IMG/VR virus record: IMGVR_UViG_2851976983_000001 | Location: 1-64,000 of that record | Length of the DNA: 64,000 nucleotides | Origin: a virus | Taxonomy: Duplodnaviria > Heunggongvirae > Uroviricota > Caudoviricetes | Reading direction: 5' to 3' (one strand) | Part shown: one piece after another, positions 2,762-10,540 of the stretch | How the letters are laid out: every line of letters starts with the position of its first letter | Position numbering within the stretch: the first letter of the stretch is position 1 | Translations under genes and position numbers: made by a program | Notes under the pieces: model-generated | Seen by the model: only the letters and a program-made list of their open reading frames with translations | Told to the model about the DNA's origin: nothing | The model's database searches: none

Positions 2762-3040
2762 ATGAGCGAAAAGAAAACAACTTATTGTCAGGTAGCATTG
2801 TCTGATAAGGCCAATGACAAACTTGGAAAGTTTCAAGTGAAACTAAAAGAAAAAAATATCAAAATGTCTAAGGCTGAAGTCATAAATACCATTCTGGAAC
2901 AATTGACAATGGCCGACTTTGACAAGGTTATATCTTCTGTCGGGGCTTCCGCTAAGACTCGTGAGAAAATCATGCGTATCTATGAGAACTCTAATATGAC
3001 AAAGGAAGATCTCGAAACGCTATTAAGCAGATTAAAATAA
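2762..3040 (+). CDS. hypothetical protein (92 aa)
   Basis: ORF starts 3 nt after helicase stop, same strand; no recognisable motif. Confidence 0.45.
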   Translation: MSEKKTTYCQVALSDKANDKLGKFQVKLKEKNIKMSKAEVINTILEQLTMADFDKVISSVGASAKTREKIMRIYENSNMTKEDLETLLSRLK

Positions 3041-3108
3041 TCACGCTATCAATTAGGGAGACAAAGATGAAGTCTCCCATACTGTTCACTTTCTGTTCTA
3101 AAACTATC

Positions 3109-3531
3109 ATGAAATACTCGCTTCTCCCTCTACTAACGTTACCAGTGTTGATGCTTACCGCGTGCCAATCACGCCCAATATCAATCCATGACGCCAAACC
3201 AGCACCGCAGGCCAAAGTGTTCAAGTATCAAAGCGCAGCGCCAGCTACGTTGGTGGTAATGAGAGACACAGGTTTTGTAGGAGCTGGATGTGATGCTTCC
3301 ATTTTCATCAACGGCGAAACTGTCGCAAAACTGGCTACAGGCGAAAAAGCGACTTTCCATTTAAATGCCGGAGAATTAATTGTGGGTGCATCTCTTGAAG
3401 GTGCAGGTTTATGTGCTCTAAACCCCGCTCGTCAAGAGCGAGAAACGACTCTGAAGAATGGAGACACAAAAGCGTTCAGGGTGTTCACCAGCAATTCTGG
3501 TGACATCGACATTCTGCCAACAACTCTGTGA
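3109..3531 (+). CDS. putative lipoprotein
   Basis: Internal Met start MKYSLLPLLTLPVLMLTAC gives signal peptide plus lipobox LTAC; the longer track ORF from 3067 is probably an N-terminal over-extension. Confidence 0.55.
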   Translation: MKYSLLPLLTLPVLMLTACQSRPISIHDAKPAPQAKVFKYQSAAPATLVVMRDTGFVGAGCDASIFINGETVAKLATGEKATFHLNAGELIVGASLEGAGLCALNPARQERETTLKNGDTKAFRVFTSNSGDIDILPTTL

Positions 3532-3535
3532 TGAC

Positions 3536-4060
3536 ATGACAACCAAAGATATTACCTACGGTATCCAAGCTGAACTCTGGCCGCGAGATTACACTAACGT
3601 TGAAAAACTACTGATGTTCTGGCGCAGAGAACAAATTCCTGTAAGGGTCACTCTCGAAGATGGTCAGGCGTTTTGCATGTACGTTTATGGCCTCATGCCA
3701 TCTCGCAACAAAGTTGACCTTTGCCCAGCCCCTTTTGACAAAGAAAATCGTATAAGGCTCCCACTTGAACGCATTAGTACAATTGAATCAGGTGTGGTTG
3801 ACAGTATCGCTCACGATTTCAAAGGTCGATTAACAGTTCACCCTGATTATGTCGATAATCGGCCATCACGCCGCGATTTTTTTGCAATTTGCAACCAAGC
3901 CTACAAAGCAAACAAATCTATAAGGGTGTACATGGCGGATGGCCGTGAAATTGAGGGGGTGTCAGCAGGCGCAGATGCTTGTCAGGTTACACTACGTGTC
4001 GAGAACGGTAGAAAAATAGTTGTTTTGTTCGATTGGGTTGAACGAATTTTGCCTTTTTGA
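3536..4060 (+). CDS. hypothetical protein (174 aa)
   Basis: Track ORF 3458..4060 overlaps the lipoprotein gene; first in-frame ATG after the lipoprotein stop is 3536 (MTTKDITYG...). Confidence 0.45.
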   Translation: MTTKDITYGIQAELWPRDYTNVEKLLMFWRREQIPVRVTLEDGQAFCMYVYGLMPSRNKVDLCPAPFDKENRIRLPLERISTIESGVVDSIAHDFKGRLTVHPDYVDNRPSRRDFFAICNQAYKANKSIRVYMADGREIEGVSAGADACQVTLRVENGRKIVVLFDWVERILPF

Positions 4061-4063
4061 GTT

Positions 4064-4372
4064 ATGAAATCGATATTGTTACCACCATTATTTTTACTTT
4101 GCTCAGTTGCGGCAAATGCAATGGACTATAAGCCTGTCATTCAGTCGCTGATGAATGACGTGTGCTCAACGTCTCAGAATGTATCAGTTTGCATGTATCA
4201 ATTTTCGGCAGCCGTAAAAGCAGGAAAAGCGATAGGTGAGAATGTGGAACTGTGTAAGAAAGTGGCAAATGAAGAACGGGCAATGTTGGATTGCGAATCT
4301 AGCGAGTCATCGGCACAGTTCGTTGATGCGCTATTTGACACCAATCGTAAGGCTGTAGAGTCTGTTCAATAA
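4064..4372 (+). CDS. secreted hypothetical protein
   Basis: 102-aa ORF with N-terminal signal-like segment MKSILLPPLFLLCSVAANA. Confidence 0.5.
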   Translation: MKSILLPPLFLLCSVAANAMDYKPVIQSLMNDVCSTSQNVSVCMYQFSAAVKAGKAIGENVELCKKVANEERAMLDCESSESSAQFVDALFDTNRKAVESVQ

Positions 4373-4655
4373 ATCTATAAGGTTAATAACCGGCTAAGTC
4401 CGGTTATTATTTTTCACATCACTTCTTTATATCTACAAATCAAATAACCTAAATATATATAAGGTCGAAAGCCGGAATCGATTATTTATTTAGGGAACAC
4501 CTTCGACGATCTCGCTTTTATTTCTAGGACTTTCATCCCTGCAAAAAATTTTAAAAAAACACTTGCAATCTTTTTTCGCGTATCGATAATTGAACTCGTC
4601 GAAAGCGAAGACGCTAACGACAATAAATTTTAAATTTACATAAGGAAAAATTATC

Positions 4656-5306
4656 ATGGCTAACATTATCATTTCTAAAAAGTCCATCATTGAAGCTGCA
4701 TCTATTGTATCCGACGAGCTGCGCGAAAAAGCAGATCTGGCAACTCAAACATATAACGAACATTATAAAAATGGTACGCACACTAAAGCAGACAAAGCAA
4801 ATATGCAAGCTGCGACCACTAAACTTGCTTACTTCATCAACAACGTTGTAAACGCTGTAGAAGACGAAAAATTATGCTCTGTTTTTTACTATGCGATTAA
4901 AGCAAGCAAACAAGCGCCAGAAGTATTTTTCCGTGATGCAATGACTAATAGTTATTCTCTGGAAAAACTGGTTTATCTGGTTAAATCAATTAAATCTGGT
5001 AAATGCGTTTATTCCATCGCTGATATGTCAGGATCTCGTGTATTCGCTTTAATCGATATGATTAACGACGAGATCGACACGTTCACCAATGGCGCTGTTT
5101 TCGATTTAATGAATGAAGCTAAAAAAGCGTGTGAAATTAAATTGGACGCTGGCTATACTCAAGCCAACCAGTTGATCAATCTTTGCGAACGTCTTGGACT
5201 TGTTGAAAAAGTCAAAGGAGCTGGGAGCGCGAAAGCTGGTACTCAGCAATATCGCTTCATTAAAAATGATTTCTACAATTATTTAGCTGATGCTTTCAAA
5301 GCGTAA
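4656..5306 (+). CDS. hypothetical protein in AT-rich island
   Basis: 216-aa ORF; AT-rich codon usage unlike neighbours; followed by hairpin AGCGCCCATTATGGGCGCT. Confidence 0.5.
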   Translation: MANIIISKKSIIEAASIVSDELREKADLATQTYNEHYKNGTHTKADKANMQAATTKLAYFINNVVNAVEDEKLCSVFYYAIKASKQAPEVFFRDAMTNSYSLEKLVYLVKSIKSGKCVYSIADMSGSRVFALIDMINDEIDTFTNGAVFDLMNEAKKACEIKLDAGYTQANQLINLCERLGLVEKVKGAGSAKAGTQQYRFIKNDFYNYLADAFKA

Positions 5307-5355
5307 TTAATGGAATCAAGCGCCCATTATGGGCGCTTTAAAGGAGCTTTAAAAA

Positions 5356-5559
5356 ATGGTCAGCTATGACAAGATCCGCGCGGAATATCGCGCAAAGTAT
5401 CGCGCTTATAAACTGGAATTAATCGATGATTTGATCGCGCAACGCGACCAATTAAATTTTACGTTTTCTGATTTGCTTAACAGCAAGCGAGATTGCAAGC
5501 GCAAACGTGAATACTTACGTTTAAGCGCATTAATCGGAAAACTTCAAAATTCTATTTAA
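5356..5559 (+). CDS. hypothetical small protein (67 aa)
   Basis: ORF with AAGGAG RBS 7 nt upstream; same AT-rich island. Confidence 0.4.
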   Translation: MVSYDKIRAEYRAKYRAYKLELIDDLIAQRDQLNFTFSDLLNSKRDCKRKREYLRLSALIGKLQNSI

Positions 5560-5579
5560 TTTTTTTAAGGAGCTTAATC

Positions 5580-5810
5580 ATGTTTGTTCTTATCGCTGGC
5601 GTTAACGTCCATAACGAATATTATGTTAATCGCATCGCTGGGATCGCTGGTTACGCTGGGCGCGCAGTCGAGCTTATAGATGAAACGACGCGCAAAATTG
5701 ACTTATTGAGCGACCAGGAGCGAAAAAAAGCAGACGTGAACGACGCTGATATATTTTTAATGTTAAAAGCGTTTGTAGAAATGGGATTTGAAATCAGTTT
5801 ACATAAATAA
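5580..5810 (+). CDS. hypothetical small protein (76 aa)
   Basis: ORF with AAGGAG RBS; followed by rho-independent terminator. Confidence 0.4.
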   Translation: MFVLIAGVNVHNEYYVNRIAGIAGYAGRAVELIDETTRKIDLLSDQERKKADVNDADIFLMLKAFVEMGFEISLHK

Positions 5811-5815
5811 AATCG

Positions 5816-5841
5816 AGCGCCCACTATGGGCGCTTTTTTCG
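5816..5841 (+). terminator. rho-independent terminator
   Basis: Hairpin GAGCGCCCACTATGGGCGC followed by TTTTTT; near-identical stem at 5319-5337. Confidence 0.6.
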
Positions 5842-5863
5842 TTTCCAATACTTCCACCATAAC

Positions 5864-5887
5864 GCGCCAATGATGGCGCTTTTTTTA
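5864..5887 (+). terminator. rho-independent terminator (tandem second)
   Basis: Hairpin GCGCCAATGATGGCGC followed by TTTTTTT. Confidence 0.55.
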
Positions 5888-6264
5888 TTGTCTTTGACTC
5901 ACTCCAACAACATAAAAATAAGCGCCAAAATAACGCCACAGACGAGCTTTTATATCCTTACCAGTATATACCCATTACTTAGCGCATTAACGCGCTTAAA
6001 ACGCGTTATATTGCGTTATGGTGTATGGTTAATCATTGGCTTTTAGTCTTGCTTTATGATCCGCGTTTATTTGTCGGCGCGGATCGGCATTTTGTTTTGT
6101 TCCGTATCCGCTCGCGTATTATGTGCGCGTGATTTTTCACATAATCACACCACTTAATCACGTATGTGATTATGCTACGAAAGAAATCTGGATGTCTCAG
6201 GCGACGAAAGTCATCATAATTTTCCCCGCTCACCTGTCCGACAACCGCTGGTTGGATTCCACCA

Positions 6265-6420
6265 GCTTCCCGATGTTTTTTTCTACACAAAGGCGAATGC
6301 AGCCGTTTCCCGAAAAAATCCTGGCCGTTTCCCGTCGGCTCATGAATGCGTTCCTTGCCGTTTCTGAAAATTTCCCTGCGGCAGCTGGTGGCTATAGAGA
6401 AAGGGCCGTTTCTGGCCCTC
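6265..6420. repeat. iterated GCCGTTTCCC-type repeats (block copy 1)
   Basis: About 5 copies of gccgtttccc/gccgtttct at roughly 22-bp spacing; also contains TTCCCTGCGGCAGCTGGTGGCTATAGAGAAA, related to sequence at 8690-8715. Confidence 0.6.
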
Positions 6421-6427
6421 TTCTCAG

Positions 6428-6910
6428 TTACACGCCATCAAGGATGTGGATGCGGTTGCTTGCGTATACATTCAGCATAAAGTTAGCGCAAAACAGTTTC
6501 CATGTATCAACGCCAGCGGTATACGTAATGTTTTTGCATTTAATTGCATTGTTGGCGATCCGCATCCCCTGCGATACTGCTTCATCGTCGGAAAATTTGA
6601 ACGACGATTGAGTTTTAATCCAGACAGAAATCTGCGTAGCGAACTCAATCAACTTGGACTGGCAGAATCGCCCGGAGCGCACCGGAAAGACGAACGTTCC
6701 GAATCCAGAATTTACCACATACGCTTTCTCAAATACCCGCGAGTAACGACGATTGCCAATGATGTCGCGTGCAATAATGCATTTTTCTTGTGCTGACAGT
6801 TCTACCGTCTCATTGTCGCGCCATGCACCAAGTACTCGTTTTTCAATGTCAGAGAACGTTACAGCGATATTGCCATGTGCGGGTGCGTTTACAGTAGCGA
6901 TAAAATTCAT
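6428..6910 (-). CDS. hypothetical protein (160 aa)
   Basis: ORF with AAACAAATTGTTTTCTT motif immediately upstream. Confidence 0.5.
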   Translation of the reverse strand: MNFIATVNAPAHGNIAVTFSDIEKRVLGAWRDNETVELSAQEKCIIARDIIGNRRYSRVFEKAYVVNSGFGTFVFPVRSGRFCQSKLIEFATQISVWIKTQSSFKFSDDEAVSQGMRIANNAIKCKNITYTAGVDTWKLFCANFMLNVYASNRIHILDGV

Positions 6911-7114
6911 GATTAATTCCTTATCGTAAATAACAAATTGTTTTCTTGTTGGTGTTAATTATCGTTGTACGAATAAGGCGTCAAAGTGGAAAGTTGCGGT
7001 AGCCGGACGGGAACAGGTGGGTTTGTCGGTTGCCTGGAGGTAAGAGGTTGGTGTTTTTAGCCTGCGGGAAACAGGATGGTCATTTAAGGCCACCAATGCT
7101 GATGGCCTTAATAA

Positions 7115-7258
7115 TTATCGACCGATTACGCTAAGGATCTTTTCCTCAACTGATTTGTTGTTGCGACTAAACTGCCTTGCGTATCTGATGACAGAAGAGG
7201 CGTTTTGCTTTCTGACCATCTCGGCTCTTTCCTTCAGGCGTTTCTTGAAATCGCCCAT
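7115..7258 (-). CDS. possible small basic protein (47 aa)
   Basis: Hand translation MGDFKKRLKERAEMVRKQNASSVIRYARQFSRNNKSVEEKILSVIGR; below the track length cut-off; weak. Confidence 0.25.
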   Translation of the reverse strand: MGDFKKRLKERAEMVRKQNASSVIRYARQFSRNNKSVEEKILSVIGR

Positions 7259-7260
7259 AT

Positions 7261-7637
7261 TTACCACCAGGCGCAGAAGGTCAGTTTATTATTGTGAAAG
7301 TCGTGGTTCTTAATCAGATCTTCCACAAGCTCTTTCAACTCCCCCACATCATGCCAGTAACCTTCATCGTACTCCTGACTGCCGAAGAAAAAACCTTCCC
7401 GAGTAGGCAAGTACTCTTCGCAATTACTTTCGTTTATGTGCATCAAATGAGCTTTCAGAAGACAAATGTCATTCATCGTTAATTCTAAAAGCTCACAATT
7501 TTCGACTTCACCTACGTTGCGCTCCATCCACCCAACGAGCGCATTGAACTTACGGAAGTAAGCAACCTGCTTTCTGGATGCCTCGTTATTCAGATCGTTT
7601 TTAGGCTGTGTCTCGATATAGATATCAAGTCCCATGA
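7261..7637 (-). CDS. hypothetical protein
   Basis: Track ORF 7261..7677; internal start MGLDIYIETQ preferred on RBS spacing. Confidence 0.45.
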
Positions 7638-7752
7638 TGGTTTCCTTATTAAGTTGCTTCAGTGAAATCATTTTCACAAATCAGATAAGGCAGAAAACAA
7701 ATTGTTATCGGGTATAAGAAAATGGCGCGGTTTGCGCGCCATTTAAAGAGGA

Positions 7753-8148
7753 TTAAGCGAATACGCTTTCAGGGATTAAGGTGTCAGCAGGAATGCCGGA
7801 GGTAATGCGCAGACCATACTGGCCAATCCAGGTGGTGCTGGTGTTCAGGCTGGAGGCGAATACGGTGTTAACCATATTCATCATGGTTTCAAACACCTCT
7901 TCATCAACCTGGCGGAAGTAGTTCTCGATTTTCAGCAGCAGCGGGTCAGTTGCATCGAGAATGGACTGGTATTGAGTCGCGTACTCGCCGCCGGAGGCAT
8001 CACCTTTACGCACGATCGTACTGGCCTGGACTTCGGCACCAGTTTCGGTGTTGTACGTAACAACGGTGATTTTTGCCACATTCTTACCTTCGGCGGTTTC
8101 AGAGGCATAGTAAACATCAACTGTCAGTTTTTCGCGTTTAACGGTCAT
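7753..8148 (-). CDS. hypothetical protein (131 aa)
   Basis: ORF with palindrome GTAAGTATGTACTTAC upstream (8194-8211). Confidence 0.5.
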   Translation of the reverse strand: MTVKREKLTVDVYYASETAEGKNVAKITVVTYNTETGAEVQASTIVRKGDASGGEYATQYQSILDATDPLLLKIENYFRQVDEEVFETMMNMVNTVFASSLNTSTTWIGQYGLRITSGIPADTLIPESVFA

Positions 8149-9575: not shown

Positions 9576-9739
9576 GCTGACCGTAGGGGTGTTACGGGGG
9601 ATAAAATCAGGAGTTGAATAAATACGAAAAAGGAGGCGACACCCCTCCTTCCCTCCCCACTTATACATACCTGACTTCTTCGCTATACATGTTGTGTTTT
9701 CTTCGTGTTTTATCTGTCTCAACCTCTCTATAGTCGTTA

Positions 9740-10540
9740 ATGCTCACTCCTTCCAGAACGTTCTATACGGCGACTATTTCTGTTGGTGAATTGGGTGTGT
9801 TGTTTTCTCTGTCGGTGTATGTGGTTTCGTTAGTTTTGCGGTGATTCTTCTATGGGGTGTTCTCGTCGTTTTGGTGATTGTTCTTCTCCGTGTATGGAGT
9901 AATGGCAGGTTGGCGATTCCTTTCGTTATTGTGTTTGAGTTGTTTGTCTGGAGTGTGTGAAGGCTTTTGTAGTTATTCGTGTATTGGGTAATGGCGTTTC
10001 CCGTGATTGTTATGTTTCGTGTCTTTTGGGATTGAGAGAAACCTTGCGGTTACAGGCTTCGTTGGGGTTTCAGCGGTTCAGGTGTTTCTTCGCTGTTTGG
10101 GTAATGGCGTGTCGTGGGTATCGCGCGTATGAATGTTTTCGGATTGCCTGTGAAAGTTAGGTTGGTTGTCCGGTAGCCTGGGGAGAAGAGGTGGGTCTTT
10201 TCGGTAGCCTGCCATAAAGAGGTTGGTTGTTTTGGGAATGGCATATGTGTTATTTAGTTGTTTTGTTATGCCTGAAAATAAGTTGTTTATATGGTTGTGT
10301 AACGCAACGGGAACGATTTTGAGCGTGTGTTTTTGTTGGTAGTGTGTTGAGTCGTCTGTGGTGAAAATTGGACGCTGTGGCGCTGTCTGCTGCGTAGAAT
10401 TACGGGTATAAGAAGTGATGTGTGAAAACGTCAATTTTTTAGACCAAATCGGGTGAAAGCGTTGATGTTTCGTTGATCTGTTATTTAGTTGTTTTCTTGA
10501 TTGTATAAACAACTATAACTTATTGATATTTAAGGATGTG
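9740..10540. other. 0.8-kb non-coding region, strongly G+T-rich on the + strand
   Basis: Very few C on the + strand; degenerate internal repeats (GGGTAATGGCGT at 9980 and 10100; GGTAGCCTGG..GAGGTGGG at 10160-10245, related to 7000-7075); track ORFs here are low-complexity artefacts. Confidence 0.6.

Follow-up and report, generated by a model that had tools for sequence, protein, structure and literature searches.

Is the most AT-rich segment of a phage genome a piece of foreign DNA, or can it be an old part of the genome with its own mode of expression? This question is raised by positions 4380–5900 of the first 64,000 nucleotides of the IMG/VR record IMGVR_UViG_2851976983_000001, a virus of the Caudoviricetes (this whole 64-kb stretch is henceforth referred to as the window), where three small genes, here called g1, g2 and g3, stand among near-identical hairpins. 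A first-pass annotation, made from the sequence alone, had taken the segment for a horizontally acquired moron. Our analysis points to a different reading, to which, taken as a whole chain, we give slightly better than even odds (a probability of about 0.55): the segment would be a self-contained core operon for g1, built for high output and silent in lysogeny, followed by a terminator-bounded slot for g2 and g3. For two of its parts, judged from sequence comparisons, our confidence is much higher, namely that g1 is a core, vertically inherited gene of the SSU5-type phage-plasmids and that there is a slot in which g2 and g3 have been gained, lost and duplicated.

The 2.5 kb around the segment are 100% identical to the E. 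coli plasmids CP025897 and NZ_CP025870, as established by sequence search, and match Escherichia phage CMS-2020a at 97%, phage Cyrano (pLF82) at 93% and Salmonella phage SSU5 at ~83% identity. In total, 773 plasmid records match these 2.5 kb, from Klebsiella, Escherichia, Enterobacter, Yersinia (pMT1), Salmonella (pHCM2 type) and others. Given these plasmid and phage matches, the window is part of a phage-plasmid of the SSU5/pHCM2/pMT1 type.

Conservation and synteny of g1

By tblastn, g1 (4656–5306, plus strand; 216 amino acids (aa), phrog_1513) is carried by 812 PLSDB plasmids, as against ~820 Enterobacterales records with the gp32-like single-stranded DNA-binding protein (SSB) gene of the phage-plasmid, which served as the core marker for these counts (g1 versus SSB records: Klebsiella 346/347, Escherichia 214/221, Enterobacter 91/92, Yersinia 62/63, Salmonella 49/49, Citrobacter 25/25). 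It is also present in 12 of the 12 SSU5-type phages of the phage collection. The same gene neighbourhood recurs in SSU5, Cyrano, pMT1 and K. pneumoniae, as well as in the Pectobacterium plasmid Drgb1 (39% protein identity) and in a K. oxytoca element whose replicon differs (49%); it runs from a ParB-like gene through a UvsW-type helicase, small genes and a FljA-family regulator to g1, ~0.5 kb free of genes and a convergent gene of family phrog_1641. The first-pass annotation had named two findings as telling against its proposal; the first, conservation in relatives with core-like synteny, is what we see for g1 from E. coli to Pectobacterium, and the second, homology to structural phage proteins, was not found.

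No homologs of g1, g2 or g3 were detected outside the SSU5-type phage-plasmid lineage, so that no donor is visible; most of those within it are located on contigs of ~100–115 kb. Even a g1 profile compared with 1.84 billion representatives retrieved only 23 proteins, and the 11 that could be placed were all on phage-plasmid-sized contigs or plasmids.

Base composition and codon usage

The segment had been described as richer in AT than its flanks, and it is in fact the lowest-GC 1.5 kb of the 64 kb, the GC content being 37.7% at 4380–5900, compared with a window average of 46.5%. Just 0.3% of the windows of 1,521 nucleotides (nt) are as low, and the minimum begins at 4401. The GC low point (32%) lies in the intergenic promoter region, at 4351–4650. 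A low GC content is common to all g1 orthologs (39–40% versus 43–51% in the flanks; in Pectobacterium, 32% versus 38%), which indicates that in g1 this feature is ancestral. Part of the AT-richness seems to come from codon choice in g1, and the remainder from the promoter and leader region.

The codon adaptation index (CAI) of g1, calculated on the Sharp-Li scale for E. coli, is 0.445 and ranks fifth among 82 open reading frames (ORFs) despite a GC content at third codon positions (GC3) of 0.35. Of the 67 ORFs compared for the residual of CAI on GC3, g1 has the top positive value (z 2.8), and none of 1000 synonymous resamplings at matched GC3 (mean 0.319, standard deviation 0.027) reached its CAI, which lies 4.7 standard deviations above. 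The codons favoured are GCT, GTT, ACT, TCT, AAA, GAA and TTC. Replication and recombination genes, encoding a UvsX-like recombinase and the gp32-like SSB, are among the other ORFs at the top of the ranking; the CAI values of g2 and g3 are average. The composition of the segment does differ from the rest of the phage, a difference that the orthologs all share, that is partly codon adaptation and for which no donor was found. With g1 a core gene in fixed synteny, of low GC in all orthologs and without outside homologs, the reading as a horizontally acquired island finds little support.

Promoter, upstream blocks and 5' stem-loop

Upstream of g1 we predict a sigma-70-type promoter at 4543–4590 (plus strand), consisting of an UP-element-like A-tract (4543–4560), a −35 hexamer TTGCAA (4563–4568), a spacer of 16 nt and a −10 hexamer GATAAT (4585–4590), a 9/12 match, with a predicted transcription start at ~4597. 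Throughout the 76 loci compared in this region (61 distinct sequences), the A-tract, CTTG at −35 and the Shine-Dalgarno (SD) sequence TAAGGA are kept, and TCGATAAT is the −10 hexamer of most lineages, a few having CATAAT or CATATT instead. The alignment of relatives further revealed three plus-strand blocks, B1 (ATATATAAGG, 4455–4464), B2 (ATTTATTTAGGGAACACCTTCGA, 4484–4506) and B3 (TTTATTTCTAGGACTTT, 4517–4533), invariant or nearly so in the aligned relatives and retained even in Pectobacterium Drgb1, where g1 is only 39% identical. They are presumed to be binding sites for a putative regulator. Elsewhere in the window, neither the block motif nor the promoter pattern exceeded chance, the patterns being imperfect and missing the true site. 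Sites of the CsrA, IHF and LexA types, judged by eye in the upstream region, were rejected, their key bases being unconserved in relatives.

A stem-loop (−5.5 to −10.3 kcal/mol) is found in all lineages right behind the −10 region, beginning ~7–8 nt past the hexamer. In the window it reads GTCG-AA-AGCG-AAGA-CGCT-AA-CGAC (4598–4621, plus strand) and lies at the predicted 5' end of the mRNA. Most lineages follow the consensus (A/G)TCG-AA-AGC(G/A)-loop-(C/T)GCT-AA-CGA(T/C), and divergent ones have non-homologous hairpins in the same position. In the alignment 93% of cells pair, two pairs have compensatory changes and the covariation score was reached by 2 of 500 shuffles; when the register is slid, pairing drops to 12–45%. 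Provided that transcription starts ~7 nt past the −10, this element would be a 5'-terminal, mRNA-stabilising stem-loop. A scan of positions 3000–8000 against Rfam (E≤1) gave two chance-level matches only (Hrs1 and bxd_5).

Repeated terminators and a variable gene slot

Three hairpins share the stem GCGCC(C)A..TGG(G)CGC, and, as first described, only two of them have a T-run, namely those at 5815 and 5864. No other site in the 64 kb fits the pattern GCGCC(N)A..TGG(G)CGC. The first hairpin, T1 (AGCGCCCATTATGGGCGCT, i.e. AGCGCCCA-TTA-TGGGCGCT, 19 nt; 5319–5337; −15.1 kcal/mol, z −3.2), lies 13 nt past the g1 stop codon and has only TTT after the stem, followed by TTTAAAGGAG (the ribosome-binding site of g2). 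T2 (GAGCGCCCA-CTA-TGGGCGCTT, then TTTTTTC; 5815–5840, hairpin 5815–5835; −15.5 kcal/mol, z −4.9) and T3 (GCGCCA-ATGA-TGGCGC, then TTTTTTT; 5864–5886, hairpin 5864–5879; −10.7 kcal/mol, z −3.3), with 9 bp followed by TTTTTT and 6 bp followed by TTTTTTT, both have the stem-loop and U-tract of an intrinsic terminator. All three are on the plus strand, and we favour reading them as plain intrinsic terminators: T2 as a strong one that would form the right boundary of the slot, T3 as its probable back-up, and T1 as a candidate leaky terminator or 3' stabiliser at the left boundary.

Between T1 and T2 lie g2 (5356–5559, plus strand; 67 aa, isoelectric point (pI) 9.7, phrog_6145) and g3 (5580–5810, plus strand; 76 aa, pI 5.2, phrog_1585), with the SD sequence AAGGAG at 5341–5346 and 5567–5572, respectively. 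The initial description of three small ORFs with a strong SD each was accurate, and the distance from SD to ATG is 7–9 nt in all of them. A promoter scan found no promoter of their own for g2 or g3.

The 19-nt palindrome of T1 and T2, AGCGCCCA-YTA-TGGGCGCT, is invariant in six aligned elements, in which the stem of T3 is also kept and its loop varies. Over more than 90 loci the stem is invariant and the loop is CTA, TAG (flipped), TTA, ATA, CAA, TTG or CTT. The exact 19-mer occurs in 93 IMG/VR stretches, which together with five relatives and the window make 99 loci, and g1 adjoins in 92 of them; five of the remaining seven are truncated loci that still have g3 and/or the convergent phrog_1641 gene. 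In Pectobacterium, g1 is followed by another palindrome, CCGCCA-TTAC-TGGCGG, with a T-run; since this palindrome differs yet has its T-run at the same place, terminator function appears to be what is kept.

Two further observations concern the palindrome itself. In two IMG/VR contigs that have none of the three genes (L007 at ~12915 and L093 at ~1472), the 19-mer AGCGCCCACTATGGGCGCT with a T-run closes an unrelated gene (product ...GSSAGTYKVS), either by chance convergence or as a travelling terminator. In several loci (L009, L012, L021, L031, L058 and others), one copy has its loop inverted from CTA to TAG with the stem unchanged, the expected signature of template switching within a hairpin.

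What lies between the hairpins varies widely. In 78 loci, with H standing for a hairpin, the slot was H-g2-H in ~22, H-g3-H in ~19 and H-g2-g3-H in ~16, while ~20 had one to three hairpins spaced 44–47 nt apart, empty or with a divergent g2 allele; H-g3-H-g3'-H, with two g3 alleles, was found as well. Of the ~812 g1-carrying plasmids in PLSDB, 514 (63%) have g2 and 373 (46%) have g3, with a clear lineage pattern: Yersinia has g3 only, almost all Enterobacter have g2 only, and Escherichia nearly always has g3 (216) and in about half of the cases g2 (116). The proposed test of presence or absence across relatives therefore splits the segment, g1 being found everywhere and g2 and g3 being variable. 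When a cassette follows, the T-run of T1 is 3–5 T leading straight into AAGGAG, and when the slot is empty (Kox/L055) the T-run is full. TTTAA(A)GGAGCTT, the context of the ribosome-binding site in both g2 and g3, forms a direct repeat, and a deletion between its two copies gives the exact arrangement of Cyrano.

Two more terminator-like hairpins flank the segment. The one at 4384–4414 (plus strand; TAATAACCGG-CTAAGT-CCGGTTATTA + TTTTT; −12.6 kcal/mol, z −4.2), found by terminator scan, is kept in six of six aligned relatives and, terminator-like as it is, closes the upstream operon (the FljA-like gene and a 102-aa gene) and marks the left edge of the cassette. The other (GGCGTTATTTTGGCGCT + TATTTTT, 5921–5937, minus strand) faces T3 and may insulate the cassette against convergent transcription.

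Expression in the lysogen

RNA sequencing has been performed on phage Cyrano in E. coli LF82, in LB cultures grown overnight, for 1 h and for 6 h and in bacteria inside macrophages (PMC9928086, S1 Table). The ortholog of g1 is CYRAN_113 and that of g3 is CYRAN_112; g2 is missing from Cyrano. Both genes are at the detection floor, with normalised counts of 5.9 (CYRAN_113) and 5.0 (CYRAN_112) for a floor of 4.99 and an element median of 9.8, and log2 values of 2.3–3.9 in most conditions, g1 reaching ~5.6 only at 6 h in macrophages (PMC9928086). The neighbours CYRAN_114, 115, 117 and 118 have counts of 18, 29, 114 and 46 (range 9–114 over CYRAN_114–118), the authors' screen for lysogeny-expressed morons left out CYRAN_113 and CYRAN_112, and Cyrano is SOS-inducible (PMC9928086). 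The g1 unit is off in lysogeny, in this one strain. Since this unit, seemingly built for high output, is silent in the prophage, its use would fall, by elimination, on infection or induction; the literature yielded no lytic, infection or induction transcriptome and no functional study of SSU5-type elements. In the same LF82 data, CYRAN_43, a hypothetical gene beside the integrase and the putative repressor (OV696614), stands 723-fold over the element background in lysogeny.

The proteins encoded by g1, g2 and g3

The g1 protein (24 kDa, pI 7.6) was modelled with AlphaFold from 18 homologs (predicted local distance difference test score 82.5). In the model, the first ~70 residues form a long helical hairpin, the middle part is helical and the C-terminal part is a winged helix-turn-helix (HTH), the HTH being followed in the predicted structure by a beta-hairpin wing, so that the C-terminal domain models as a winged helix of the DNA-binding type. 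Residues 85–112 and the putative recognition helix YTQANQLINLCERLGL are the most conserved. Membership in an HTH family was not detected by sequence, with no match in Pfam, NCBIfam or PDB and likewise nothing from PADLOC, and a fold search of BFVD gave partial winged-HTH matches only (E>0.04). Compared with winged-helix proteins of the ArsR, MarR, TubR or PadR types, the N-terminal helical part of g1 is unmatched and there is no evident metal or ligand site. The protein appears to represent an uncharacterised family restricted to this phage-plasmid lineage.

The g2 product is probably helical. Its name in SSU5, 'MIT/CorA transporter', found no support in family searches and looks like a mis-annotation, and it is through this doubtful 'MIT transporter' label only that g2 is placed in the PHROGs category 'moron, auxiliary metabolic gene and host takeover'. 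For g3, the models weakly suggest a generic ferredoxin/ACT-like fold (one of five models confident), without a functional lead. Neither g2 nor g3 had a significant match in Pfam, NCBIfam, PADLOC or PDB sequences, and the earlier description of all three proteins as having no assignable function stood up to these searches.

How the unit may work

In the reading that we prefer, transcription would start at the sigma-70 promoter with its adjacent A-tract, the 5' stem-loop would shield the mRNA end, and the strong SD together with the codon-adapted frame would give ample amounts of g1, a product of winged-helix, DNA-binding type. The unit would be active whenever repression is absent, i.e. on infection or induction, with B1–B3 as possible control sites. 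T1 would act as a partial terminator or as a 3' stabiliser of the g1 message, and T2 and T3 would halt transcription ahead of the convergent genes. The promoterless g2 and g3, each with its own AAGGAG, would be expressed solely by read-through of T1. Recombination between the repeated hairpins, and between the repeated SD sites, could lead to gain, loss and duplication of g2 and g3, the duplicated terminator being the source of homology for cassette turnover.

Such an arrangement recalls known designs for high output or differential expression, namely the tandem T1T2 terminators of rrn operons, the 3' stabiliser hairpins of the pap and puf type and the 5' stem-loop of the ompA type. Shared with them, as predicted here from sequence, are a near-consensus promoter with A-tract, a 5'-terminal stem-loop, a strong SD, codon bias, a hairpin after the major gene and two full terminators. 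Unlike in those systems, the hairpin after g1 is an exact copy of the final terminator and bounds a variable gene slot.

Several observations weigh against this account. That the unit is off in lysogeny comes from LF82, a single strain whose element is without g2, and ~0.7% of LF82 cells are spontaneously induced, yet g1 reads no higher than other silent genes; expression outside lysogeny would follow by elimination. The codon adaptation of g1 is moderate, with mixed codons for Asn, Asp, Ile and Tyr. The covariation in the 5' stem-loop is thin: of its eight pairs, five are constant, and the three GC cells at the base pair belong to a trio of close E. coli-type sequences and probably reflect one event. 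The winged-helix call derives from an alignment of little depth (18 sequences sharing at least 54% identity) and concerns ~80–110 residues only, in a protein that is near neutral and not basic. Finally, the palindrome stem is invariant even where the proteins are only 49% identical, which goes beyond what a terminator strictly needs.

Alternative explanations

The alternative that survives best, although we regard it as unlikely, is that g1 works at low copy as a switch regulator of lysis/lysogeny or copy number, in the manner of Cro, an antirepressor or a late activator, the upstream blocks being operators for g1 itself or for the repressor. The winged-helix fold predicted for g1, its tight silence in the lysogen beside expressed neighbours, the strong conservation of the blocks even at 39% protein identity and the SOS-inducibility of Cyrano would all suit such a regulator. 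However, codon adaptation, an A-tract promoter, a 5' hairpin and triple terminators are the traits of a high-output gene, no inverted-repeat operator lies over the core promoter, and g1 is ~58 kb away from the putative repressor CYRAN_45.

A bolder extension of the high-output operon, which we advance tentatively and consider rather improbable in its particulars, would make g1 the founder of an abundant, phage-plasmid-specific DNA-binding family produced only on entry or induction (e.g. coating, organising or protecting the incoming or replicating genome). The slot would then be a dedicated site at which g2 and g3, as small proteins for host takeover or anti-defence, are exchanged among elements, and the conserved, RNA-binding FljA-type neighbour may hold g1 mRNA down in lysogeny via the 5' stem-loop.

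We find it more doubtful still that the palindromes are mainly protein-binding sites, whether as DNA operators for a g1 dimer (8-bp half-sites, 3-bp spacer, one helical turn) or as RNA hairpins that control read-through into g2 and g3. Within each element the palindrome is found at this locus alone, its stem (AGCGCCCA/TGGGCGCT) is invariant in the 90+ loci, including the 49%-identity lineage, with a loop that varies or flips, and g1 shows the same invariance in its putative recognition helix. Because the stem is conserved beyond terminator need, some sequence-specific role, e.g. as a site for the g1 winged helix, is conceivable. On the other hand, Pectobacterium has a different palindrome with a T-run at this position, T2 and T3 have canonical U-tracts, an identical 19-mer with T-run closes an unrelated gene in two other viral contigs and the promoter has no copy in its vicinity. 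Moreover, if recombination at the slot is frequent, it would homogenise the stem too.

In the sense of Juhala and Hendrix, a moron is a promoter-gene-terminator unit inserted between core genes of lambdoid phages, and it is by definition expressed from the repressed prophage. That the island is such an element, horizontally acquired, expressed from the prophage and of benefit to the host, is now very improbable. What stands of the original proposal is that the g1 segment is an autonomous unit with its own predicted sigma-70 promoter and intrinsic terminators, that its composition is off that of its flanks (the lowest GC of the window) and that g2 and g3 have been gained and lost among relatives; the PHROGs category of g2 adds its questionable label. 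A recent acquisition of the whole island does not stand: g1 is universal, core and syntenic, the low GC is found in all orthologs, there are no homologs outside the lineage and no visible donor, g2 and g3 have no promoter of their own, and in LF82 g1 and g3 are at the floor and were passed over by the moron screen.

We give just as little credence to an anti-defence or host-takeover locus on the analogy of acr-aca, in which a strong immediate-early promoter would serve a conserved HTH-type protein and changing small inhibitors (g2 and g3). A conserved HTH-type gene does adjoin small, variable, lineage-restricted ORFans, a strong-looking promoter is silent in the lysogen, and g3 alleles are stacked in some elements; but the gene order is opposite to that of known acr-aca loci, g1 is codon-adapted and far larger than Aca proteins, the promoter has no inverted repeats, just two cassette families occur, both lineage-confined, and PADLOC and Pfam searches give no lead.

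An integron array, which the slot resembles in its promoterless small genes stacked, duplicated or absent behind one upstream promoter, each with the same hairpin repeat behind it, was rejected, since no integrase lies within ~4 kb of the slot in any relative (the neighbours are the FljA-like regulator, a putatively secreted 102-aa protein and phrog_1641), the repeats are perfect terminators (8-bp stem, 3-nt loop) with T-runs and not imperfect attC palindromes with extrahelical bases, only two cassette families are found at the g1 slot, and ordinary homologous recombination or slippage explains the pattern.

Neighbouring regions

The FljA-family protein encoded upstream (3458–4060, plus strand; PF03614, E 2.5e-84) has a weak Hfq-like match at residues 146–188, and in the Cyrano lysogen, where g1 is silent, the ortholog of this protein is expressed. 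Members of the FljA family act as post-transcriptional repressors of fliC (PMC2652032); this one might act on host flagellin mRNA or on the g1 leader. The gene for a 102-aa protein (4064–4372, plus strand; phrog_9536) with a signal-peptide-like N-terminus, MKSILLPPLFLLCSVAANA, is inserted between the FljA-like gene and the terminator of its operon. It is missing from SSU5, Cyrano and pMT1, and K. pneumoniae has a ~99-aa gene in the same place (a match in position only). As it is carried by a lysogeny-expressed operon, this gene is a better moron candidate than the segment flagged originally.

From the last terminator to the convergent gene (6428–6910, minus strand), ~500 nt (5900–6430) are without a convincing ORF, and all relatives have this stretch. 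Conservation is highest at 6295–6425, where there are four direct copies of GCCGTTTC(C/T), at 6302, 6324, 6357 and 6405, a motif seen 8 times in the window for 1.9 expected; GCCGTTTCCCGAA is retained even in Pectobacterium plasmid Drgb1. The repeats are a possible iteron-like protein-binding array or an RNA. Further on, 9700–10450 is a G+T-rich, strand-biased stretch (GC skew to +0.49, AT skew to −0.55) in which neither a convincing ORF nor a tandem repeat was seen. It carries recurring GGTAATGGCG-like motifs and one GGCGTTTCC, and is a possible non-coding RNA or a possible origin or iteron-type region.

Significance

In clinical E. coli, Klebsiella, Salmonella Typhi and Yersinia pestis, phage-plasmids of the SSU5/pHCM2/pMT1 type are frequent and in some cases have resistance genes, and their regulation has hardly been studied. 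For genome scans in general, the segment carries a caution, in that low GC together with terminators can signal a codon-adapted core gene and not foreign DNA. The analysis adds an uncharacterised protein family and an example of what appears to be terminator-mediated cassette turnover in this group. The g1 unit is a good candidate for a key function in the infection or induction phase and would be a handy reporter of the switch out of lysogeny, and the slot offers a concrete, small-scale way in which such elements may exchange accessory genes at duplicated terminators.

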